Below are positions 579 to 33,569 of a stretch of 64,000 nt of DNA, one piece after another (position 1 is the stretch's first letter; the number at the start of each line of letters is the position of its first letter). The position numbers and the translations under genes are program-made. The DNA is from an uncultured Eubacteriales bacterium (GTDB taxonomy: Bacteria > Bacillota > Clostridia > Oscillospirales > CAG-272), in contig CABUHS010000010.1 of NCBI GenBank assembly GCA_902491535.1, positions 6,541 to 70,540 of the forward strand. Direction: 5' to 3'. The notes under the pieces are model-generated. The model was not told the origin of the DNA, did no database searches, and was given only the letters and a program-made list of their open reading frames with translations.

Positions 579-2327
579 CTACTTAACTCTCAGCGCAGAT
601 ATTCTGTCGGGATCCGGGGTAACATAAGCAGTCCAGTTTTTTGTATACGTCACAAATCCCGGCTTTGAACCTGCGGGCTTCTTGATATATCTTATCTGAG
701 TATAATCAACAGCGGTATTCTCGCCGCTTTCCGCCTTCGAATTAAATGCTGCTATCTCGGCAGCTTCGGTAAAATCGGAAACGTCCGGTTCGTTTTCTCC
801 GTCAGTAAACAATACAACATGAGAACCCGGCACATTCTTAGCATGAAACCACCAATCCGAGCGCTCCGCAGTCTTTGTTGTAAGTATATCATTCTGTATA
901 TTATTCCGTCCGCACAGTACACGGTAACCTCCCGACGTTCTGTATTCTATAGCACGGACACGGCGAACCTGTTTTTTCTGATTCTTTTTGTTTTTAATAT
1001 CCTTTGCCAAGCCCGTTTCGGCGAGTTCAGCGCGTATTTCATCTATATCCGATTCAGATTCGCATCTTGACAGCGCGTCAAGCACGGTGTCTATATATAC
1101 AAGTTCTGATTCGGCAAGCTTTATCTGTTCGGCAAGAACCTGCTCTGCGGTTTTCAGCTTTGAATATTTTCTGTAGTATTTCTGTGCATTCTGAGAGGGA
1201 GACATACGCGGATCGAGAGGAACAGTGACCTGCTCAAGTCCCTCGGAATAATAGTCGGTAAGCTCCGCCGACGTCATACCCTTGCTCACTGCCCATATAT
1301 TTGAAGTAATAAGATCACCGAAACGTTTAAGCTTCTCGCCGTCTGCACATCCTGCAAGCTCCTCGCGCTGAAGCACAAGCTTCCTGCGCAATCTTGCGTC
1401 GGCGTTTCCGAGCATATGCAGTATATCCGACTCGCGCTGCCTGATACGCTCCGCGCGGTCCCGTTCACCGAAAAATAGTTCAAGCAAAGCGGATATACCG
1501 GCAGGATGCTCAACAGACGCGGTGTCTCCGTAAACACCTACATCCGTAAAACAGTATTCGATCGGCTTTTTATCCGCATCGCGGACAAGTGTCGGCTGAT
1601 ATATACCGAGTTCAAGATCCTTCAGTATACCGGACATAACATCGAAAAGGCGCTCGCAGCTATCTGAAGCACGGTGTGCGATCTCCTTTGCGAGAAGCGA
1701 GGATATTCCAAGATAGTGCGCAGTTATAAATTTATCCGCACGCAAAGTTCCGCCGTCAAAAAGTCCTTCGGCACGGCATAGGGAAAGAAAATGCTTTCTG
1801 CTCTCTGTCCTCGGATCAAGCTTATCCTGAGGAGGCGGAAGCTCGTATTTCATTCCGGGCAGAACCTGTCTTTTCTGACTTGTCGTAAAATCCACAGTAC
1901 GGCATGCTCCGAGTATGCGGTGATCTCCGTCACAGAAAATAATATTGCTGTACTTTCCCATTATTTCGATGATAAGAGAACGTCTCGCGGAAAAACCCAT
2001 TTCGTCCGTTCCGTCAAAAACAAGCTCAAGCACCCGTTCAAATCCCGGCTGGATAATTTCAGTCAGCTTAGCGCCGGAAAGATGTTTTCGCAGAAGCATG
2101 CAGAACATCGGAGCGGTAAGCGGATTCTCCTTGACCGAGGAGGTAACATGTATTCTCGGCGAGCTTGGCGACGCCGATATAAGCAGTCTTTCACTGCTTC
2201 TGTCCCTGTGAAGGATCAGTATAAGTTCATCTTTTTCCGGTTGCTGCACCTTCTCAACGCGCGCTCCGGTAAAGCAGCGCCGCAATTCATCTGCGACCGC
2301 CGCGACCATTCCTGCATCAAATGCCAT
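579..2327 (-). CDS. rqcH: Ribosome quality-control protein RqcH (NFACT / fibronectin-binding protein A family, DUF814)
   Basis: 582-aa ORF. It has an NFACT-N-like N-terminus (MAFDAGMV...EKVQQPEKDELIL), a central coiled coil, and a C-terminal NFACT-R/DUF814 region (WWFHAKNVPGSHVVL). Confidence 0.9.
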   Translation of the reverse strand: MAFDAGMVAAVADELRRCFTGARVEKVQQPEKDELILILHRDRSSERLLISASPSSPRIHVTSSVKENPLTAPMFCMLLRKHLSGAKLTEIIQPGFERVLELVFDGTDEMGFSARRSLIIEIMGKYSNIIFCDGDHRILGACRTVDFTTSQKRQVLPGMKYELPPPQDKLDPRTESRKHFLSLCRAEGLFDGGTLRADKFITAHYLGISSLLAKEIAHRASDSCERLFDVMSGILKDLELGIYQPTLVRDADKKPIEYCFTDVGVYGDTASVEHPAGISALLELFFGERDRAERIRQRESDILHMLGNADARLRRKLVLQREELAGCADGEKLKRFGDLITSNIWAVSKGMTSAELTDYYSEGLEQVTVPLDPRMSPSQNAQKYYRKYSKLKTAEQVLAEQIKLAESELVYIDTVLDALSRCESESDIDEIRAELAETGLAKDIKNKKNQKKQVRRVRAIEYRTSGGYRVLCGRNNIQNDILTTKTAERSDWWFHAKNVPGSHVVLFTDGENEPDVSDFTEAAEIAAFNSKAESGENTAVDYTQIRYIKKPAGSKPGFVTYTKNWTAYVTPDPDRISALRVK

Positions 2328-24987: not shown

Positions 24988-27360
24988 GTGAAAAGATTGT
25001 TGTCTTTGCGTCCCGCGTGCTTCGTTTGCTTATTCTATATTGTATCGTCTTTCGTTACTGCCGCGTTATTTATCCTCTCTGATTTTTATTATGCTAAAAT
25101 ACTTTTGGCGGCTTCTGCCGCCGTTTTTCTTTTAACGGTAATTTTGTATATTGCGAATCGTTTTATATTATGCGATTTTTCAGTTTCAAATGTTATCGTA
25201 TGTGCTGTGGGTGCTGCTGCTTTGGGTGTTATGCTTTCGTCGTGGCAATTCGGTATTCGTGCCGATATGATCGTATCAAATTATTCCGGAGAAAATCAAA
25301 CGGTTGAATTTACAGTCAAAAATGTAAACAGTAGGACTCCGTACAGATCGGTTTATGATATAGAAATAATTTCGATAAGCGGAGACCGTGTATCTTTGGA
25401 CGCTGTTCTTAAAACTTCCGGAGACGGCATGCTATCAGTGGGTGATATTGCAGTTGCAACCGGTAATATTTCAGAAAATATCAGACACGGTGATACTGTC
25501 GCAGCAAAGCTGTCATATGCCGCTGATAAAAAAATTGTTGAATTCAGTATACCGGAGCAGTCGAATTCCGGTACCGGAAATATTATCGTAAAAGGAGAAG
25601 ATACTTCGATTTTATCGTTGCCTGACAGACTGCGCAGTCATTTCTCCGATATTTTAAAAATTCGTATCGGAAAAGCTGCTCTCGGATTGCCTTCGGCGGT
25701 ACTTCTCGGCGACAAAAGCAGTCTTTCTGCGTCGGTCAGACGGGATTTCTCCGCAGTCGGAGCATCTCATCTGCTTGCAGTCAGCGGAACGCATCTTTCG
25801 GTAATAATCGGTTCTCTTGATATTATTATTAAGAAGGTCAAAGTCGATAGGAGAATAAGAAATGTAACGGTGATAGCGGCGGCATTTTTCTTTGCCGCGC
25901 TTACCGGATGTTCCGCATCGGCGCTCCGCGCTGCGGCAATGCTGACGTTTACGAGACTTGCACCCATGTTCGGAAGAAGGAGCGATCCGGCTACTTCGCT
26001 TTGTACAGCGGTCGCTGCTATTTTACTTTTTGACCGTTCAGCTGCTGCTGATATTGGTTTGCTTTTGTCATTTTGTTCAACACTCGGTATAGTTACGGTA
26101 GGAACAAAACTTGGAATTATTCTTGAATTGTTCTGTAAGCGGATTGAAGGTATAAAAGAAAATGTCCCTTTTTCTTTTGTACGCACGGTGTTATCGGGAA
26201 CTGTCTCATATTTTGGCTCTATTACGGTTATGAGTATATCTGCAACAGTATTTTCGTTGCCTATTGTTGCGGTGCTTTTCGGGTTTCCGTTGGCTTCGGC
26301 TCTTGTTGCGAATTTATTGCTTGTACCTCTTATTACTGTTATTATTTCTGTAACGCCGCTTGCCCTTTTGACCGGAATTTTTGCTCCGGTCGGAAATATC
26401 GCAGCATCACTTTCCACATCTGTTTCTGTACTTTCCATATCGGCGGCGCGCTTTATGGCTGATATTGGTAATAGCAGAGTGTATTTGGCGGTATCTCTTT
26501 CTGTTATTTCCGTAATAGCGGTTTTGGTATGTGTTAGTATATTCAGAAATCAGCATATTGACCGCAACTCTCGTAAAAAGATCGCAATCTCGCTTGCAGC
26601 ATACGCCATGGCTGTTTGCATTACGGTTTCGGGAGTAGTTGCTCAGTATGTCGGATATTCTGACGGATGTCACGCTGTATTTGTATCTGACGGAGAAAAT
26701 GACGGGTTCGTTATTTCGGACAGTGGAACCGATATCCTTATTGATATATCGGACGGAAGCAAGTCTGCTGCCGAGAGGACTATGTCGGCTGTTTCAGACG
26801 GAGTTCCGGAGGTGATCGTGCTTACACAGATTAAAAGTAAGCATATTTCGACGATCGGAGATATCTTATCGAAAAAACAGGTACAAACACTTTTTATTCC
26901 GTCAGACTGTCCTTCATCGGATAGAAATACTCTGGCTTTGCTTGTCCGCGCAGCAGAAAATGCAGGAACTGAAGTTGTTTTTTATCAGGGAGGAGAGCAG
27001 GTTGAATTCGGAAGAACCGGACTTATTATGCCGTTGCTGAGGTATGACGGCGAATCAGATTCCGGATATGAGGCGATGCTCGGTATAATGTGCGACGGCG
27101 AAGCGGCGATCGAATATATATCCGGAGCATTGCAGAACGTCAATTTTATTGACGGTATTCCGTTTATGCCACGATACGCTGTTATCGGTTCTTACAGATC
27201 AGCGCACGAAGCTCCGCTTTATTATCATAAGGCGGGAATCGAAACAATTGTATTTGCATCAGGAAATATAAAATATTATAACACGAATGCCGGAGATACC
27301 GAAACAGCGCATGTTGTACTCGGAAAAGCTATTGATCGGTATATGTTTGATCTTGATTAG
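24988..27360 (+). CDS. comEC: ComEC/Rec2 family DNA internalization channel protein
   Basis: 790 aa with a GTG start. It has many TM helices and a Competence-domain motif (GASHLLAVSGTHLSVI). The C-terminal beta-lactamase-like region appears to lack a clear HxHxDH motif. Confidence 0.85.
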   Translation: MKRLLSLRPACFVCLFYIVSSFVTAALFILSDFYYAKILLAASAAVFLLTVILYIANRFILCDFSVSNVIVCAVGAAALGVMLSSWQFGIRADMIVSNYSGENQTVEFTVKNVNSRTPYRSVYDIEIISISGDRVSLDAVLKTSGDGMLSVGDIAVATGNISENIRHGDTVAAKLSYAADKKIVEFSIPEQSNSGTGNIIVKGEDTSILSLPDRLRSHFSDILKIRIGKAALGLPSAVLLGDKSSLSASVRRDFSAVGASHLLAVSGTHLSVIIGSLDIIIKKVKVDRRIRNVTVIAAAFFFAALTGCSASALRAAAMLTFTRLAPMFGRRSDPATSLCTAVAAILLFDRSAAADIGLLLSFCSTLGIVTVGTKLGIILELFCKRIEGIKENVPFSFVRTVLSGTVSYFGSITVMSISATVFSLPIVAVLFGFPLASALVANLLLVPLITVIISVTPLALLTGIFAPVGNIAASLSTSVSVLSISAARFMADIGNSRVYLAVSLSVISVIAVLVCVSIFRNQHIDRNSRKKIAISLAAYAMAVCITVSGVVAQYVGYSDGCHAVFVSDGENDGFVISDSGTDILIDISDGSKSAAERTMSAVSDGVPEVIVLTQIKSKHISTIGDILSKKQVQTLFIPSDCPSSDRNTLALLVRAAENAGTEVVFYQGGEQVEFGRTGLIMPLLRYDGESDSGYEAMLGIMCDGEAAIEYISGALQNVNFIDGIPFMPRYAVIGSYRSAHEAPLYYHKAGIETIVFASGNIKYYNTNAGDTETAHVVLGKAIDRYMFDLD

Positions 27361-27405
27361 ATAACGGTAAACTCTTTGTTTTTCTGATAAATTTCAGAAA
27401 AACAA

Positions 27406-27434
27406 TTGACAAAACACGAAAAAGCACTTATAAT
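27406..27434 (+). promoter_or_regulatory. Consensus sigma-A promoter far upstream of the polyamine operon
   Basis: TTGACA (27406-27411), a 17-nt spacer, then TATAAT (27429-27434), 460 nt before the speA ATG. Confidence 0.7.
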
Positions 27435-27439
27435 AGAAT

Positions 27440-27819
27440 ACGGATTGCATCTCCATATAGAGTCTTTCCAAGCGATTATTACGGACCACTCATTCAGAGT
27501 TGAGGCCATACGGACAGCCGGGTCCACTGCCGATTGGCGGTATCTGCCGCCTTATTGATTGAGTTAAAAGCTCAAATTTTATAAGTTGGTTACTTTATAA
27601 CCGAAATGCGTATTTACGCAGACTTGTGAAACGGTCAATAAAGAGTAGTAAAAGTTTTATTGCTATATAGACTCTATAAACCCGCATATCCGTTATGGCA
27701 TTATACCTTATTATAGGTCAATTATGTCACTGTTTTGAATTTTGTAATAATTACAGTCAAAATCAATGTTATAGGATATTAACGCAAGCTGTGTAAAAGC
27801 AGCCTGCGTTTTTATTTTT
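27440..27819 (+). promoter_or_regulatory. Long structured 5' leader / candidate cis-regulatory RNA ending in an intrinsic terminator
   Basis: A long-range helix pairs 27440-27465 with 27669-27693 (acggat/atccgt, tgc/gca, tatagagtct/agactctata). Internal hairpins lie at 27483-27525, 27536-27551, 27559-27575, 27588-27602 and 27607-27620. The terminator at 27781-27819 has an 11-bp stem and tttttattttt. Confidence 0.5.
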
Positions 27820-27893
27820 GATTCGGATACAGTCAGACTAAGACAAAATTTATTACATTCTGCAGCTGGACGCATGGCAGAACGGAGATTGAT

Positions 27894-29354
27894 ATGGAAA
27901 AGAAAAAATTTGAACTCGACCAAAAAAGAGCGCCGATCTATGAAGCGCTGCAAACATTTCGTCACATGCGTGTTGTTCCGTTTGACGTTCCGGGACACAA
28001 ACACGGAAGGGGCAATCCTGAGCTGACGGCGTTTCTGGGAGAGCAATGTGTCAGCATAGACGTAAACAGCATGAAACCGCTTGATAACCTGTGCCATCCG
28101 ATCTCTGTTATAAAAGAAGCGGAGGTTCTCGCAGCCGATGCTTTCGGAGCAGCTCATGCCTTCTTAATGGTCGGTGGAACAACAAGCTCTGTTCAAAGTA
28201 TGGTACTGTCTACCTGTAAAAGAGGAGATAAGATCATATTGCCGAGAAATGTCCACCGAAGCGTTATAAACGCCCTTGTTCTCTGCGGAGCTATACCGGT
28301 ATATGTCAATCCCGAAGTAGATCTCCGTCTCGGAATTTCTCTGGGAATGCGGCGCGAACAAGTCGCAAAAGCTATTGCCGAAAATCCTGATGCGGTAGCG
28401 GTTCTTGTGAATAATCCTACCTATTACGGTATTTGCAGTGATATTAAAGAGATTGTAAAAATGGCGCACGGTGCAGGAATGTACTGCCTCGCCGACGAGG
28501 CTCACGGTACACATTTCTATTTCGGAGACAGCATGCCTGTTTCCGCTATGGAAGCCGGAGCAGATATGGCGGCAGTGTCGATGCATAAAAGCGGAGGCAG
28601 TCTCACGCAGTCAAGCCTGCTTCTTATAGGCCCGAATGTAAATTCAGGTCATGTAAGACAGATAATAAATCTGACGCAAACCACGTCCGGCAGCTATCTT
28701 TTGATGTCGAGCCTTGATATAAGCAGACGTAATCTTGCGCTGAGAGGAAAAGAAGTATTTTTGTCAGTTATCCGTATGGCGGATTATGCCCGTGAGGAAA
28801 TAAATGCGCTCGGCGGATATTACGCTTTCGGAAAAGAGCTTATAAACGGTAATTCAGTATTCGATTTTGATCCGACAAAGCTAAGTGTTCATACGCGTGA
28901 CATCGGACTTGCAGGTATTGAGGTCTATGATATTCTCAGAGACGAATATGATATCCAGATCGAGTTCGGAGATATCGGAAATATACTTGCGTATCTGTCT
29001 ATAGGCGACCGTCCGCAGGAGCTTGAGAGACTTGTAAGTGCGCTTGCGGAGATCAGACGGAGATATCAGAGAAGCACAAGCGGACTGCTGAGTCAGGAAT
29101 ATATCGATCCGGAAGTCGTTACAAGCCCTCAGGAAGCATTTTATGCCGATAAGAAAAGCATTCCGATAAAAGAGAGCGCAGGCTATGTATGCAGTGAATT
29201 TGTAATGTGCTATCCTCCGGGGATCCCGATTCTTGCTCCCGGTGAAAAGATCACTGCAGATATACTTGATTACATCGAATATGCAAAAATAAAAGGATGT
29301 TCTATGACCGGACCTGAAGATCCCGACATTCTGAATATCAATGTTTTGCAGTAA
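27894..29354 (+). CDS. speA: PLP-dependent Orn/Lys/Arg decarboxylase, probably arginine decarboxylase (Bacillus SpeA type)
   Basis: 486 aa. The fold-type I decarboxylase major domain carries SMHKSGGSLTQSS (PLP lysine). It is first in an operon with agmatinase and spermidine synthase. Confidence 0.7.
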   Translation: MEKKKFELDQKRAPIYEALQTFRHMRVVPFDVPGHKHGRGNPELTAFLGEQCVSIDVNSMKPLDNLCHPISVIKEAEVLAADAFGAAHAFLMVGGTTSSVQSMVLSTCKRGDKIILPRNVHRSVINALVLCGAIPVYVNPEVDLRLGISLGMRREQVAKAIAENPDAVAVLVNNPTYYGICSDIKEIVKMAHGAGMYCLADEAHGTHFYFGDSMPVSAMEAGADMAAVSMHKSGGSLTQSSLLLIGPNVNSGHVRQIINLTQTTSGSYLLMSSLDISRRNLALRGKEVFLSVIRMADYAREEINALGGYYAFGKELINGNSVFDFDPTKLSVHTRDIGLAGIEVYDILRDEYDIQIEFGDIGNILAYLSIGDRPQELERLVSALAEIRRRYQRSTSGLLSQEYIDPEVVTSPQEAFYADKKSIPIKESAGYVCSEFVMCYPPGIPILAPGEKITADILDYIEYAKIKGCSMTGPEDPDILNINVLQ

Positions 29355-29364
29355 GGAGATAGAA

Positions 29365-30216
29365 ATGGAACTTTGGTTCAGTGAATTTCACACAAAGGAC
29401 GTAAAGCACAGCATACGCGTAAACCGGCATCTGTATTCGCACAAAAGCGATTACCAGCAAATAGATATCTTTGACACTCCCGAATTCGGAAGAGTTTTAA
29501 CCCTTGACAATAATGTCATGCTTACCGAACGCGATGAATTTATATATGACGAGATGATCACACATGTTCCTATGGCAGTACATCCCAATATACAGGACGT
29601 ACTGGTAATAGGTGCAGGAGACGGCGGCGTTGTCCATGAGCTTGCACGGTATGAAAAGGTAAGAAGGATCGACCTTGTTGAGATGGATCCTCAGGTTATA
29701 GAAGCCTGCCGTACTTATCTTCCCGAAAATGCCTGCCGTCTTGACGATAAGCGTGTTCATATCTATTTTGACAACGCGCTGCGTTTTATAAGGCGGTGCA
29801 AAGATCAGTACGACCTGATAATTGTTGATTCGACCGATCCTTTCGGTCCTTCCGAAGGATATTTTACCCGCGAATTTTACGGGATATGCTATAATGCTCT
29901 TCGAGAAGACGGTATTATGGTCAATCAGCAGGGAAGTCCTTTTTATAAGCATGACGCGGAAGCTATGCAGAGAAGCCACCAAAGGATCGCAAGTACATTT
30001 CCGATAAGCCGTGTATATCAGGCTCATATCCCGACATACGCCGCAGGATACTGGCTTTTCGGCTTTGCAAGTAAAAAGTATCATCCGATAGATGATCTGA
30101 ATACGGAAAGTTGGCTGGCTTTGAATTTACAAACACAGTATTATACAACAAAATTACATGTCGGAGCATTTTATCTTCCCGCTTTTCTCGAAAAAATGCT
30201 TAAGGAGGTCGAATAA
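29365..30216 (+). CDS. speE: Spermidine synthase (polyamine aminopropyltransferase)
   Basis: Start chosen at MELWFSEFHT, after an AAGGAG RBS. Motifs are VLVIGAGDGGVVHEL and IIVDSTDPFGPSE. Confidence 0.85.
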   Translation: MELWFSEFHTKDVKHSIRVNRHLYSHKSDYQQIDIFDTPEFGRVLTLDNNVMLTERDEFIYDEMITHVPMAVHPNIQDVLVIGAGDGGVVHELARYEKVRRIDLVEMDPQVIEACRTYLPENACRLDDKRVHIYFDNALRFIRRCKDQYDLIIVDSTDPFGPSEGYFTREFYGICYNALREDGIMVNQQGSPFYKHDAEAMQRSHQRIASTFPISRVYQAHIPTYAAGYWLFGFASKKYHPIDDLNTESWLALNLQTQYYTTKLHVGAFYLPAFLEKMLKEVE

Positions 30217-30222
30217 AGAACC

Positions 30223-31080
30223 ATGCTTACACACAATATTGAAACTTTTATCGGATGCGACAGCGAATATGACAAAGCAGGGACCGTGCTTTTCGGCGCT
30301 CCGTTTGATTCGACAACAAGCTTCCGTCCCGGAGCAAGATTTGCCTCATCATATATACGGCATGAAAGCTTCGGAATCGAAACATACAGTCCGTATCAGG
30401 ATAAAGATCTGACCGATCTTAATGTTTTTGACAGCGGAGATCTCGAGCTTTGCTTCGGAAAAGCAGAATTCGCTCTTTCAGATATAGAGGGCCGTACATC
30501 GGAAATACTCATGGACGGTAAATTCCCGCTTATGATCGGAGGAGAACATCTTGTGACGCTCGGAGCTTTGAGAGCCGTGATGAAACGGTTTCCCGATCTT
30601 CATATAATTCAGTTTGATGCGCACGCAGATCTCAGAAACGATTATCTCGGAGCAGAGCTTAGCCACGCCTGCGTAATGCGTCGCGCACACGATCTGCTCG
30701 GAGACGGGCGTATCCATCAGTTCTGTATCAGGAGCGGAGAAAAAGAAGAATTCAGATTTGCAAAAGCTCATACGGATATGCATCTGTTTGGCTTCAATGG
30801 ACTTTCAGAGCTTACGAGCGCGCTTAAAGCATCGGGAACTCCGGTATATTTTACAATAGATCTCGACTGCCTGGATCCGTCCGCTTTTCCTGGAACAGGA
30901 ACTCCCGAGGCAGGAGGAATAAGCTTCACAGATCTGCTCCATGCCATTATAGAAGTATGCAAAACCGATGTTGTCGGCGCAGATATAAATGAGCTTGCTC
31001 CGATGCTTGATACAAGCGGCGTTTCTACCGCAACAGCCTGCAAGGTACTCAGAGAACTGATCCTTGCGTTAAACAAATAA
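30223..31080 (+). CDS. speB: Agmatinase (ureohydrolase family)
   Basis: 285 aa with arginase-family metal-binding motifs (GGEHLVT, QFDAHADL, TIDLDCLDPS). Confidence 0.85.
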   Translation: MLTHNIETFIGCDSEYDKAGTVLFGAPFDSTTSFRPGARFASSYIRHESFGIETYSPYQDKDLTDLNVFDSGDLELCFGKAEFALSDIEGRTSEILMDGKFPLMIGGEHLVTLGALRAVMKRFPDLHIIQFDAHADLRNDYLGAELSHACVMRRAHDLLGDGRIHQFCIRSGEKEEFRFAKAHTDMHLFGFNGLSELTSALKASGTPVYFTIDLDCLDPSAFPGTGTPEAGGISFTDLLHAIIEVCKTDVVGADINELAPMLDTSGVSTATACKVLRELILALNK

Positions 31081-31105
31081 GTTACCGGATAAAGGAGATA
31101 AAATA

Positions 31106-32365
31106 ATGAGCAAAGTTTTAGTTATAGGATGCGGCGGAGTTGCTTCGGTTGCTATAAGAAAATGCTGTCAGGTAAGCGAAGTTTTTTCAGAGCTTTGCAT
31201 CGCAAGCAGAACCAAAGCAAAGTGCGACAGCTTGGCGGACTCTCTTAAGGGAAAAACAGCGACAAAAATAACAACAGCACAGGTAGATGCAGACAGCGTA
31301 CAGCAGCTGACTGATCTGATAAATTCATACAAGCCCGATCTTGTTATGAACATTGCACTTCCTTATCAGGATCTTACAATTATGGACGCATGTCTTGCAT
31401 GCGGAGTAAACTATATGGATACCGCAAACTATGAACCGGAAGATACCGACGATCCTAAGTGGCGCGCGATCTATGAAAAGCGGTGCAAGGAACAGGGATT
31501 TTCGGCTTATTTCGACTACAGCTGGCAGTGGGCATACCGTGAGAAGTTTGAAAAGGCAGGCCTTACCGCCCTTCTCGGCTGCGGATTTGATCCCGGAGTC
31601 ACTCAGGCTTACTGCGCTTATGCTAAAAAGCATGAATTTGATACTATAGATACAATCGACATTCTGGACTGTAACGGAGGCGATCACGGATATCCTTTTG
31701 CCACAAACTTCAATCCGGAAGTAAATCTGCGCGAAGTTTCGGCTCCCGGAAGCTACTGGGAAAACGGACACTGGGTGGAGATTCCCGCAATGAGTATCAA
31801 GCGCGAATATACATTTGATTCGGTCGGAGAAAAAGATATGTATCTTTTGCACCACGAAGAAATAGAGTCCCTGGCTCTTAATATTCCGGAAGTCCGGAGA
31901 ATACGTTTCTTTATGACTTTCGGACAGAGCTATCTTACTCATATGAAATGTCTTGAAAATGTCGGAATGCTTTCCACGACGCCCGTAAACTACGAAGGAA
32001 AAGAAATAGTTCCGATAAAATTTCTGAAAGAGCTGCTTCCCGATCCGGCAAGTCTCGGTCCGCGCACGCACGGCAAGACAAATATCGGATGTATTTTCAC
32101 CGGAAAGAAAAACGGAGAGGATAAAGCTTATTATATTTACAATGTATGCGATCATCAGGAATGTTACCGCGAAGTGGAGAGTCAGGCTATCAGCTATACA
32201 ACAGGCGTACCTGCCATGTGCGGAGCATTGATGCTTCTCACGGGAAAGTGGAACAGGACAGGCGTACACACCGTTGAAGAATTTGATCCCGATCCTTTTC
32301 TTGACGCACTCGATAAATACGGTCTACCGTGGAGAGAAAACCGTACTCCGGCATTGGTAGACTGA
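31106..32365 (+). CDS. Carboxy(nor)spermidine dehydrogenase (saccharopine dehydrogenase family)
   Basis: 419 aa with an N-terminal Rossmann motif (VLVIGCGGVASV), followed directly by a carboxynorspermidine decarboxylase gene. Confidence 0.8.
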   Translation: MSKVLVIGCGGVASVAIRKCCQVSEVFSELCIASRTKAKCDSLADSLKGKTATKITTAQVDADSVQQLTDLINSYKPDLVMNIALPYQDLTIMDACLACGVNYMDTANYEPEDTDDPKWRAIYEKRCKEQGFSAYFDYSWQWAYREKFEKAGLTALLGCGFDPGVTQAYCAYAKKHEFDTIDTIDILDCNGGDHGYPFATNFNPEVNLREVSAPGSYWENGHWVEIPAMSIKREYTFDSVGEKDMYLLHHEEIESLALNIPEVRRIRFFMTFGQSYLTHMKCLENVGMLSTTPVNYEGKEIVPIKFLKELLPDPASLGPRTHGKTNIGCIFTGKKNGEDKAYYIYNVCDHQECYREVESQAISYTTGVPAMCGALMLLTGKWNRTGVHTVEEFDPDPFLDALDKYGLPWRENRTPALVD

Positions 32366-33569
32366 TGGCTGTAACAGATAAAAGGCCGCCGTTTGAAGCA
32401 CTCGGCGGAAAAACGCCGGAGGAGCTGTTTTCGGAGCTTCCTACACCCTGCTATATTATAGATGAAGGTCAGCTTCATAAAAACGGAAGAATTCTTGCGT
32501 CTGTTGCCGAAAATACGGGTTGCAAAATACTGCTTGCACAAAAGGCATTCTCAAACTATGACTTTTATCCCCTTTTATCCGATTATCTTGCGGGAACAGA
32601 GGCAAGCGGTTTTTTTGAAGCGCGGCTCGGTGCGGAAGAAATGCCCGGAAAAGAAGTTCATGTATTCTGTGCGGCATATACGGACAGCGACTTTGATTCG
32701 ATTCTGAATTATGCAGATCATATAGTATTCAATTCTCCGGGACAGCTGAAAAGATTCGGAGCCAAAGCAAAAAAATGCAAAAAAAACATAGGTCTCAGAA
32801 TCAATCCCGAATGTTCAACCCAGGAAGGCCATGAGATATATGATCCGTGTTCAGCGGGAAGCAGACTCGGTACTACACGTGAACAATGGGATATTCAAAT
32901 GACTGATGAAACGGTGTCTATGCTGGACGGTCTGCACTTTCATACGCTTTGCGAGCAGGATGCAGATGCACTGGAGACAACGCTTAAGGCAGTCGAAGAA
33001 AAATTCGGCGATATTCTTCCGAAAATGAAATGGCTCAATATGGGCGGAGGTCATCATATTACGCGCGACGGATACGACATACAGACGCTCGAAAAATCAT
33101 AAGCGCAAAGCAAAAGTGGAATACCGAAATTTACCTTGAGCCGGGAGAGGCATGCGCTCTGAACGCAGGATATCTTGCATGCCGCGTTCTTGACATTGTA
33201 AAAAACGGAAAATTCCGCATTGCCGTACTCAATACAAGCGCTGCATGCCACATGCCCGATGTTATCGAAATGCCGTATATGCCTCCGTTATACGGAGCAA
33301 TGGAGGGAAGTGTGTCTCAGTACGTTTACCGCCTCGGAGGACCTACCTGTCTTGCAGGAGATATCATCGGAGATTACAGCTTTGACTGCGAACTTAAAAC
33401 CGGAGATCTTTTGCTGTTTGGCGATATGGCTATCTACTCAACCTGCAAAACCAATACTTTTAACGGAATGCCTTTGCCGAATATATGGAAAAGAACTGTA
33501 AACGGACGGCTTGAACAGTTGACAGATTTCGGATACGACGATTTTAAAATGAGACTCGGAAGAATTTGA
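32365..33569 (+). CDS. nspC: Carboxy(nor)spermidine decarboxylase, interrupted by a 1-nt frameshift in an A5 run (33092-33096)
   Basis: The two ORFs (32329-33102 in frame 1, 33030-33569 in frame 3) together give a full NspC-like protein. The join is ...NMGGGHHITRDGYDIQTLEK / IISAKQKWNTEIYLEPGEA...HMPDVIEMPY. The ATG at 32365 overlaps the upstream stop (TGATG). Confidence 0.8.

Follow-up and report, generated by a model that had tools for sequence, protein, structure and literature searches.

Polyamines have long been expected to serve as riboswitch ligands, and the M-box, a Mg2+ sensor, is a precedent for the sensing of cations through global compaction of an RNA. The M-box and the lysine riboswitch are comparable in size (~160-220 nt) to the RNA described here, and they share with it multi-helix junctions and near-invariant junction nucleotides. 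Like the mode of action proposed below, they exert feedback on synthesis and transport genes and use an intrinsic terminator as their platform. Neither matches the RNA described here in sequence or structure.

A riboswitch that responds to spermidine was reported by Salvail et al. in 2023 (PMC10853860). It is a variant of the SAM-I aptamer that works as a transcriptional OFF switch through a terminator and an antiterminator, and it precedes ldcC, speE and speB genes in Firmicutes. The class is the only experimentally validated one for polyamines and is rare, with 13 representatives, and its authors state that further polyamine classes surely exist (PMC10853860). The view that no widespread polyamine riboswitch is established in Firmicutes, stated with the original prediction for the present locus, is outdated by this rare SAM-I variant.

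The ldcC motif described by Weinberg et al. in 2017 is a bulged hairpin with many conserved nucleotides that is widespread in Firmicutes (PMC5737381). Its usual site is the 5' UTR of decarboxylase genes, and occasionally it lies upstream of potA. An invariant possible pseudoknot was remarked, and the motif was called "possibly related to polyamine homeostasis" and left as an orphan riboswitch candidate, with neither ligand nor mechanism given (PMC5737381). A search of the literature since 2017 yielded neither a ligand nor later work on the motif, and no description of an extended structure with closing helices, a second domain, a 3' block and an antiterminator was found in Rfam 15 or the searchable literature.

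Assignment of the leader to the ldcC family

The window is a stretch of 64,000 nucleotides of DNA from an uncultured Eubacteriales bacterium, and all coordinates refer to it. A scan of the whole window with cmscan and Rfam 15 gave a sole match above threshold, to RF02440 (SpF59 sRNA / ldcC RNA), at 27483-27533 on the plus strand. The match scores 65.2 bits, above the gathering score of 37.2 (E = 1.8e-11), and covers model positions 1-54 of 54. Every conserved letter is present in the alignment, including the 3' bulge AAGGCCAUACGGACAGCCGGGUC and the tail AaUGCCGA. The match lies in a 5' UTR, in sense orientation, before a set of polyamine genes (speA-like, speE, speB, CANSDH and nspC) with the following layout.

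27884-33569, plus strand: regulated operon, from the RBS to the split nspC (NCBIfam)
27894-29354, plus strand: speA-like Orn/Lys/Arg decarboxylase, an enzyme of the Orn/Lys/Arg-decarboxylase fold (NCBIfam)
29341-30216, plus strand: speE, spermidine synthase (NCBIfam, 370 bits)
30223-31080, plus strand: speB, agmatinase (NCBIfam, 275 bits)
31106-32365, plus strand: carboxy(nor)spermidine dehydrogenase (405 bits with the carboxynorspermidine synthase model, under its equivalog cut-off of 800 bits)
32329-33102 and 33030-33569, plus strand: carboxynorspermidine decarboxylase (nspC) in two frames, the N- and C-terminal halves (NCBIfam)

A search of the whole assembly, which is 88% complete, found no member of the AdoMet_dc family.

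When the region 27300-27950 was scanned permissively (E<=10), the matches other than RF02440 were at chance level (SpF11, MicC and miRNAs), and neither SAM-I nor any other riboswitch family was matched. The original prediction had recognized no features of T-box, SAM, lysine, ZTP, ydaO, yybP or 6S RNA, which holds for these families. It had also taken the leader for a candidate novel class; with RF02440 assigned at 65.2 bits, the class is not novel. Because the ldcC family was already suspected of a role in polyamine homeostasis (PMC5737381), the functional part of the prediction is a rediscovery of a published hypothesis. Within this known but orphan RNA family the leader is a new and typical member, showing nothing unusual compared with the others. 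It resembles the spermidine riboswitch in its genes and in the logic proposed for it, but the folds are unrelated, and no match to SAM-I, whose aptamer is a four-way junction, was obtained for the leader at E<=10. The ldcC RNA is far commoner than the SAM-I variant, and it is known here from computation only.

The signals that delimit the leader are as follows.

27406-27434, plus strand: sigma-70-type promoter (TTGACA at 27406-11, 17-nt spacer, TATAAT at 27429-34)
27782-27819, plus strand: intrinsic terminator (stem 27782-91 with 27800-09, loop 27792-99, U-tract 27810-19)
27884-87, plus strand: RBS GGAG, with the ATG at 27894

The promoter matches the consensus at 12/12 positions, and TTGACA occupies the same relative place in the alignment of several related leaders. 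A transcription start near 27441 is predicted from its position. As the original prediction stated, the end of the -10 box lies 460 nt before the ATG of the speA-like gene, and the ATG follows the U-tract of the terminator by 75 nt. The terminator it placed at 27781-27819 was recovered one nucleotide shorter, with a hairpin (27782-27809) of -15.4 kcal/mol. The fold of 27440-27900 is more stable than that of shuffled sequences (z = -4.37). The unconstrained minimum free energy (MFE) structure of 27441-27825, calculated with RNAfold, has an energy of -110.0 kcal/mol and contains the long-range helix in its three segments, together with the hairpins it encloses and the terminator, so that the observation behind the prediction is confirmed at its coordinates.

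A conserved element of about 220-240 nt

Leaders in front of speA-like, potA or speD genes were taken from 10 related genomes, all within the same order, and aligned. Strong conservation was observed over ~27456-27678, well past the 54-nt model. To sample the family more widely, one genome per GTDB species was scanned with a 20-nt ldcC core, which gave at least 120 loci. Those listed come from Bacilli (Paenibacillus, Priestia, Neobacillus and Brevibacillus), Clostridia (Oscillospiraceae, Ruminococcaceae, Lachnospiraceae, Christensenellaceae and Acetobacterium), Negativicutes (Acidaminococcus) and one Spirochaete MAG. The exact word CTTGTGAAA occurs downstream of the core in 95/120 of the matches listed. 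In a sample of the phylum, at least 17/301 genomes carry the element, as a rule in a single copy; the filters were strict, so that the count is a minimum.

For the whole element, the covariance model R1 was built with 241 positions and 60 base pairs. It was searched against 100 sequences, comprising the window, 10 loci from related genomes and 89 loci chosen solely by the ldcC core. A match was obtained in 100/100 sources, with scores of 98-249 bits, and it is full length unless a contig end intervenes. The window scores 244 bits over 27446-27683. The conserved RNA is therefore ~220-240 nt long (27456-27678 in the window), about 4 times the catalogued 54-nt motif. The published motif, a "hairpin with a bulge" (RF02440, PMC5737381), is one arm of the full RNA in all 100 sequences; to this arm the full RNA adds closing helices, a second domain with several hairpins, a 3' block that is invariant, and an antiterminator/terminator with covariation. 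Its parts in the window are listed below.

27456-65 with 27669-78, plus strand: Pa, which closes the whole element (5' strand UAUAGAGUCU; 10 bp here)
27471-76 with 27659-64, plus strand: P0 (AGCGAU / AUUGCU)
27483-27533, plus strand: ldcC motif arm (RF02440), with P1, P1a and P1b; the bulge GGCCAUACGGACAGCC and the tail ACUGCCGA are both invariant
27483-87 with 27521-25, plus strand: P1, which covaries (outer pair UA 38, GC 33, CG 15)
27488-91 with 27497-500, plus strand: P1a, which covaries (100 sequences)
27504-06 with 27517-19, plus strand: P1b, a small helix inside the bulge GGCCAUACGGACAGCC (GC 95, AU 3)
27536-40 with 27547-51, plus strand: P2, the hairpin GGCGG-UAUCUG-CCGCC at 27536-27551
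27552-27641, plus strand: central domain, in which P3 encloses P3a, P5, P3b and P3c
27552-60 with 27633-41, plus strand: P3 (UUAUUGAUU/GGUCAAUAA)
27561-64 with 27570-73, plus strand: P3a, hairpin 27561-73, with compensatory changes
27577-86 with 27622-31, plus strand: P5 (UUUUAUAAGU/ACUUGUGAAA)
27587-92 with 27598-603, plus strand: P3b, hairpin 27587-603, with compensatory changes
27607-11 with 27616-20, plus strand: P3c, hairpin 27607-20, with compensatory changes
27642-27678, plus strand: near-invariant 3' block (AGAGUAGUAAAAGU..UUGCUAUAUAGACUCU), which holds the 3' strands of P0 and Pa

In the alignment of the 100 sequences fitted to R1, which leans towards the model, 93.1% of the cells of the eleven helices are paired and 39/60 pairs show double-sided (compensatory) changes. 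The covariation score of 0.240 compares with 0.116 for shuffled alignments, of which 0/500 reach it, and with at most 0.049 when the partners are slid. A plain MAFFT alignment of 67 sequences gives 89.8% paired, against at most 45% with the partners slid. Covariation in related leaders was the check that the original prediction had proposed. Nearly all of the comparative helix model, together with the terminator, is also recovered by the single-sequence MFE structure of the leader in the window.

The two closing helices, P0 and Pa, were tested in an alignment-free manner since both sit in regions of variable length. For this, RNAduplex energies were calculated for cognate strand pairs and set against those of all non-cognate pairs. 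Cognate strands of P0 pair at -9.5 kcal/mol and non-cognate strands at -7.3 kcal/mol (permutation p<1e-4); the helix is 93.5% paired, with double-sided changes in 5/5 pairs. For Pa the values are -9.7 and -8.2 kcal/mol (permutation p<1e-4), and the difference persists when the comparison is restricted to the stretch 3' of the invariant AGACUCU (-4.9 vs -4.2 kcal/mol, p=0.0004). Pairing of Pa is 70-90% across 94 sequences, and AGAGUCU/AGACUCU is kept family-wide, with flanks that covary. The long-range helix originally proposed between 27440-27465 and 27669-27693 has Pa as its inner 10 bp, so this helix is real and conserved. Its outer segments (27440-48 with 27684-93), which the MFE structure reproduces as 27441-48 with 27685-93, are seen in no leaders other than those of this species and its closest relative.

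At least five local hairpins had been seen within the long-range helix; they correspond to P1a, P2, P3a, P3b and P3c, all of which have compensatory changes. P2 is 96.3% paired with compensatory changes in 5/5 pairs (e.g. AU 58, GC 35). A simple scan had flagged P2 as terminator-like, and this was rejected, as P2 is a covarying structural hairpin and the U-rich run behind it is the 5' strand of P3. P3 and P5 are ~98% paired yet almost invariant. Hairpins are occasionally lost: P3a is missing in L023 and L027, and P3b together with P3c in L025. Such loss at the species level is modular variation typical of genuine structured RNAs. In three sister species the whole element and its switch are kept and the otherwise invariant ldcC core is mutated, the variant there being GGACGUUUGUYC. 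Either the ldcC arm is dispensable for switching, or these copies are decaying.

Several stretches do not vary across Bacilli, Clostridia and Negativicutes, namely GGCCAUACGGACAGCCGGGUC, ACUUGUGAAA, AAGAGUAGUAAAAG and AUAGACUCU. Within the 3' block, AAGAGUAGUAAAAG...UUGCUAUAUAGACUCU is almost invariant, and ATAGACTCT is invariant in the 67-sequence alignment A3, whose sequences were picked with the looser pattern TAG[AG]CT[CT]. The AGACUCU of this block can also pair with AGAGU (27642-46) or GGGUC (27520-24); both pairings are formable in all sequences, with strands too invariant for covariation. A local hairpin P4/P4a (27642-27675) and the GGGUC/GACUC pairing given by RNAalifold were not retained as the main model, as P0 and Pa use the same 3' strands and covary. 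P4 and altP1 are possible as alternative states only. An all-against-all scan of alignment columns for extra pseudoknots gave only single-column signals that are phylogenetically confounded.

Terminator and antiterminator

An intrinsic terminator is found in 107/112 family leaders among the matches listed, after a spacer of variable length (median 92 nt, interquartile range 70-115). The 5' arm of the terminator is invariant across five genomes of the genus, and its complement is provided by the 3' strand of P3c and the invariant CUUGUG of P5. The strands concerned are given here.

27616-27628, plus strand: 5' strand of the antiterminator (ACGCAGACUUGUG), made up of the 3' strand of P3c and the start of the 3' strand of P5; pairs with 27783-27794
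27679-27781, plus strand: variable spacer that separates the conserved element from the terminator

In the window the antiterminator has 12 bp with A27622 bulged, and its energy is -15.0 to -17.8 kcal/mol. Because the sequence of P3c varies by species, this pairing can be tested across the family. Over 92 non-redundant loci, cognate duplexes average -14.2 kcal/mol and non-cognate duplexes -11.2 kcal/mol (permutation p<1e-4), and the variable part alone gives -8.3 vs -6.8 kcal/mol (p<1e-4). The 3' arm of the terminator, used as a composition control from the same genome, reaches -7.8 kcal/mol (Wilcoxon p = 3e-14; 92 loci). Compared with shuffled arms, the mean z is -2.9, and at least 9 bp are formed in 87/92 loci.

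As the strands are shared, folding of P5/P3c and formation of the antiterminator are mutually exclusive. The original prediction of termination-antitermination by a structured cis-regulatory leader is supported in that a covarying antiterminator competes with the terminator. Two of the hallmarks of a riboswitch are thereby present at the level of computation: a covarying sensor, and an expression platform that is exclusive with strands of that sensor.

The arrangement differs from that of the lysine riboswitch and M-box type. There the switching strand belongs to the closing P1 helix, whereas in the ldcC RNA it lies in the middle of the sensor, in the 3' strands of P3c and P5, and a variable spacer of ~70-115 nt separates sensor and terminator. 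The two antiterminator strands are ~155 nt apart, with the long variable spacer between them. Such a separation is unusual for riboswitch expression platforms. The spacer is AT-rich in the window, and its sequence is conserved no further than the nearest relative.

Calculations indicate that a structure with the antiterminator enforced is ~16 kcal/mol less favored than the folded sensor with the terminator, even without a ligand. With sensor plus terminator as the computed default fold, the ON state would have to be reached in another way, perhaps kinetically or with the help of a factor.

Regulated genes and proposed mechanism

The first genes behind the element were collected for 111 loci among the matches listed. 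They are speD (30 loci), speA-like genes (27), potA (23) and carboxyspermidine dehydrogenase (22); the remaining 9/111 are spurious short ORFs. All regulated first genes among these matches serve the synthesis or import of spermidine-type polyamines, and none export or breakdown. The link of the leader to polyamine genes, drawn originally from this one operon, is supported both by the content of the operon and by the first genes family-wide. Since all of the genes belong to synthesis or import, one polarity fits every one of them. Their precursors differ (arginine, SAM, aspartate semialdehyde and external polyamine), and the variable they share is the product. Feedback repression by a polyamine is therefore the best reading when taken together with the polarity suggested by the structure.

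We consider it reasonably likely that this ldcC-family leader attenuates transcription in cis and switches the operon OFF when a polyamine, spermidine or a relative of it, binds the RNA directly. Transcription would begin near 27441, and the first ~240 nt would fold into a sensor domain (27456-27678) closed by Pa and P0 and composed of the ldcC arm (P1, P1a and P1b), P2 and the P3/P5 domain with its three hairpins. The intrinsic terminator would follow ~100 nt further downstream (27782-27819), its 5' arm being able to pair alternatively with 27616-27628. With the sensor fully folded, the terminator would be freed and the operon would be OFF; with P5/P3c unfolded, the terminator arm would be captured, and read-through would leave the operon ON. 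Binding of the polyamine end product, probably spermidine or else a close relative, would stabilize the folded sensor, and the outcome would be feedback repression of polyamine synthesis and uptake. The precedent of the spermidine riboswitch would, by analogy, favor this OFF riboswitch reading. For the genome studied here, the consequence for annotation would be one RNA attenuator over the entire speA-speE-speB-CANSDH-nspC operon.

Extended to the family, the reading becomes more tentative, although it is still plausible: the ldcC RNA may be a ~220-nt aptamer that senses spermidine or related polyamines directly, which would make it the first class of polyamine riboswitch to be widespread in Bacillota, with termination control of speD, speA, potABCD and the carboxyspermidine pathway. 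If so, the catalogued 54-nt motif would be one arm only, which could explain its orphan status. The motif is common among Bacillota of gut and soil and, among the matches listed, lies only before genes of polyamine synthesis or import. The ~4x larger unit, the long-range closure and the covarying switch make the hypothesis directly testable, with OFF polarity predicted, and a 54-nt ldcC construct would miss most of the fold. The value of the window lies in one more instance that backs the larger ldcC architecture and a defined expression platform.

The same RNA switch could instead have its sensor bound by a protein, either a polyamine-responsive RNA-binding protein or a moonlighting polyamine enzyme, comparable to TRAP, PyrR or the ribosomal-protein leaders. 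Polyamines bind RNA non-specifically. A protein partner would fit the extreme conservation of the sequence just as well, and the long stretches that do not vary across Bacilli, Clostridia and Negativicutes could be its contacts; the motif has stayed an orphan in the searchable literature since 2017, and the folded state is strongly favored without any ligand. We nevertheless regard a protein partner as unlikely, though worth serious consideration, as the element in the matches listed precedes four unrelated first genes in very diverse Bacillota and one Spirochaete MAG, and conserved junctions within a multi-helix fold of 220 nt are more typically those of a sensor for metabolites or ions. No common neighboring regulator gene was noticed either. 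The computed default of sensor plus terminator also means that activation might be the regulated step. In such an ON switch, a signal of need (arginine, agmatine, a SAM-derived compound or an uncharged/low-polycation state) would unfold the sensor or stabilize the antiterminator. This appears improbable to us, given that only the product is common to regulated genes whose precursors differ, and that the sensor fold, not the antiterminator, holds the invariant nucleotides that a binding pocket would be expected to have.

The direct polyamine switch and both of these alternatives place the function of the leader in cis. The Rfam name SpF59 sRNA, and the classification of RF02440 as "Gene; sRNA", raise the possibility that the ~380-nt terminated transcript is itself the functional product, acting in trans, with its position upstream of the operon incidental or secondary. 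A terminated leader would indeed accumulate as a discrete RNA. However, among the matches listed the element always lies in sense orientation to the polyamine genes that follow it directly, and it comes with a terminator and an antiterminator that covaries. This is a cis signature, and there is usually one copy per genome; a trans-acting role is thus very improbable. Attenuation by a leader peptide would require translation of a short reading frame in the spacer to control formation of the terminator.

27695-27796, plus strand: 33-codon Cys-rich ORF (MALYLIIGQLCHCFEFCNNYSQNQCYRILTQAV), with its stop in the terminator loop

This ORF exists as first noted and overlaps the 5' arm of the terminator. 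Control by its translation is hardly credible, since the ORF has no Shine-Dalgarno sequence, is absent from three other genomes of the genus and lies in a spacer that is unconserved family-wide. It was rejected as a functional part and is regarded as a chance ORF; not being conserved, it plays no part in the proposed switch. In the nearest relative, a 4-nt indel shifts its frame, which then ends after 26 codons, ahead of the terminator.

Variation of the ldcC core and natural deletions

The ldcC core, elsewhere invariant, is altered in three orthologous speA leaders from other genomes of the window's genus.

1501-1738, minus strand: element in leader locus L137
1501-1736, minus strand: element in leader locus L140
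1298-1533, plus strand: element in leader locus L136

The entire element of about 240 nt is retained in all three, together with the antiterminator and the terminator, and they score 195-210 bits with R1, the covariance model of the whole element. Within the core, GGACAGCCGGGUCC is replaced by GGACGUUUGUCC or GGACGUUUGUUC, the tail GCCGA reads GCCAA, and both helix P1b and the putative pseudoknot are gone. A search of these genomes with the ldcC model RF02440, in the stricter-filter run, returned no match. Either this arm is decaying in the three genomes, or the altered core marks a variant of changed specificity.

Other copies have lost whole hairpins. The Agathobaculum copies L023 and L027 are without hairpin P3a, and L025, from a Ruminococcus flavefaciens MAG, is without P3b and P3c, with P5 and the remainder kept. 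These deletion variants are helpful for delimiting the minimal functional core of the element.

Spacer between sensor and terminator

In most family members the conserved sensor is separated from the terminator by an unusually long spacer (median 92 nt; window 27679-27781), the sequence of which is unconserved. It may provide a kinetic delay or hold species-specific hairpins.

Upstream region and genes of the operon

27374-27405: AT-rich 12-bp inverted repeat, TTGTTTTTCTGA-TAAAT-TTCAGAAAAACAA
32329-33569: nspC (carboxynorspermidine decarboxylase), divided between ORF 32329-33102 and ORF 33030-33569, which overlap and differ in frame

The inverted repeat directly adjoins the -35 box and follows the ComEC-like gene located upstream, whose stop codon is at 27360. 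It has no U-tract, and it could be a weak terminator for the ComEC-like gene or an operator.

SpeE, which requires decarboxylated SAM, is encoded in the operon despite the fact that no S-adenosylmethionine decarboxylase (Pfam AdoMet_dc) was found anywhere in the 88% complete assembly containing the window. The same operon encodes the carboxyspermidine route. The split of nspC is a frameshift, either an assembly error or a genuine pseudogene; the first ORF stops just past an A5 run (GAAAAATCATAA, approximately 33091-33102).
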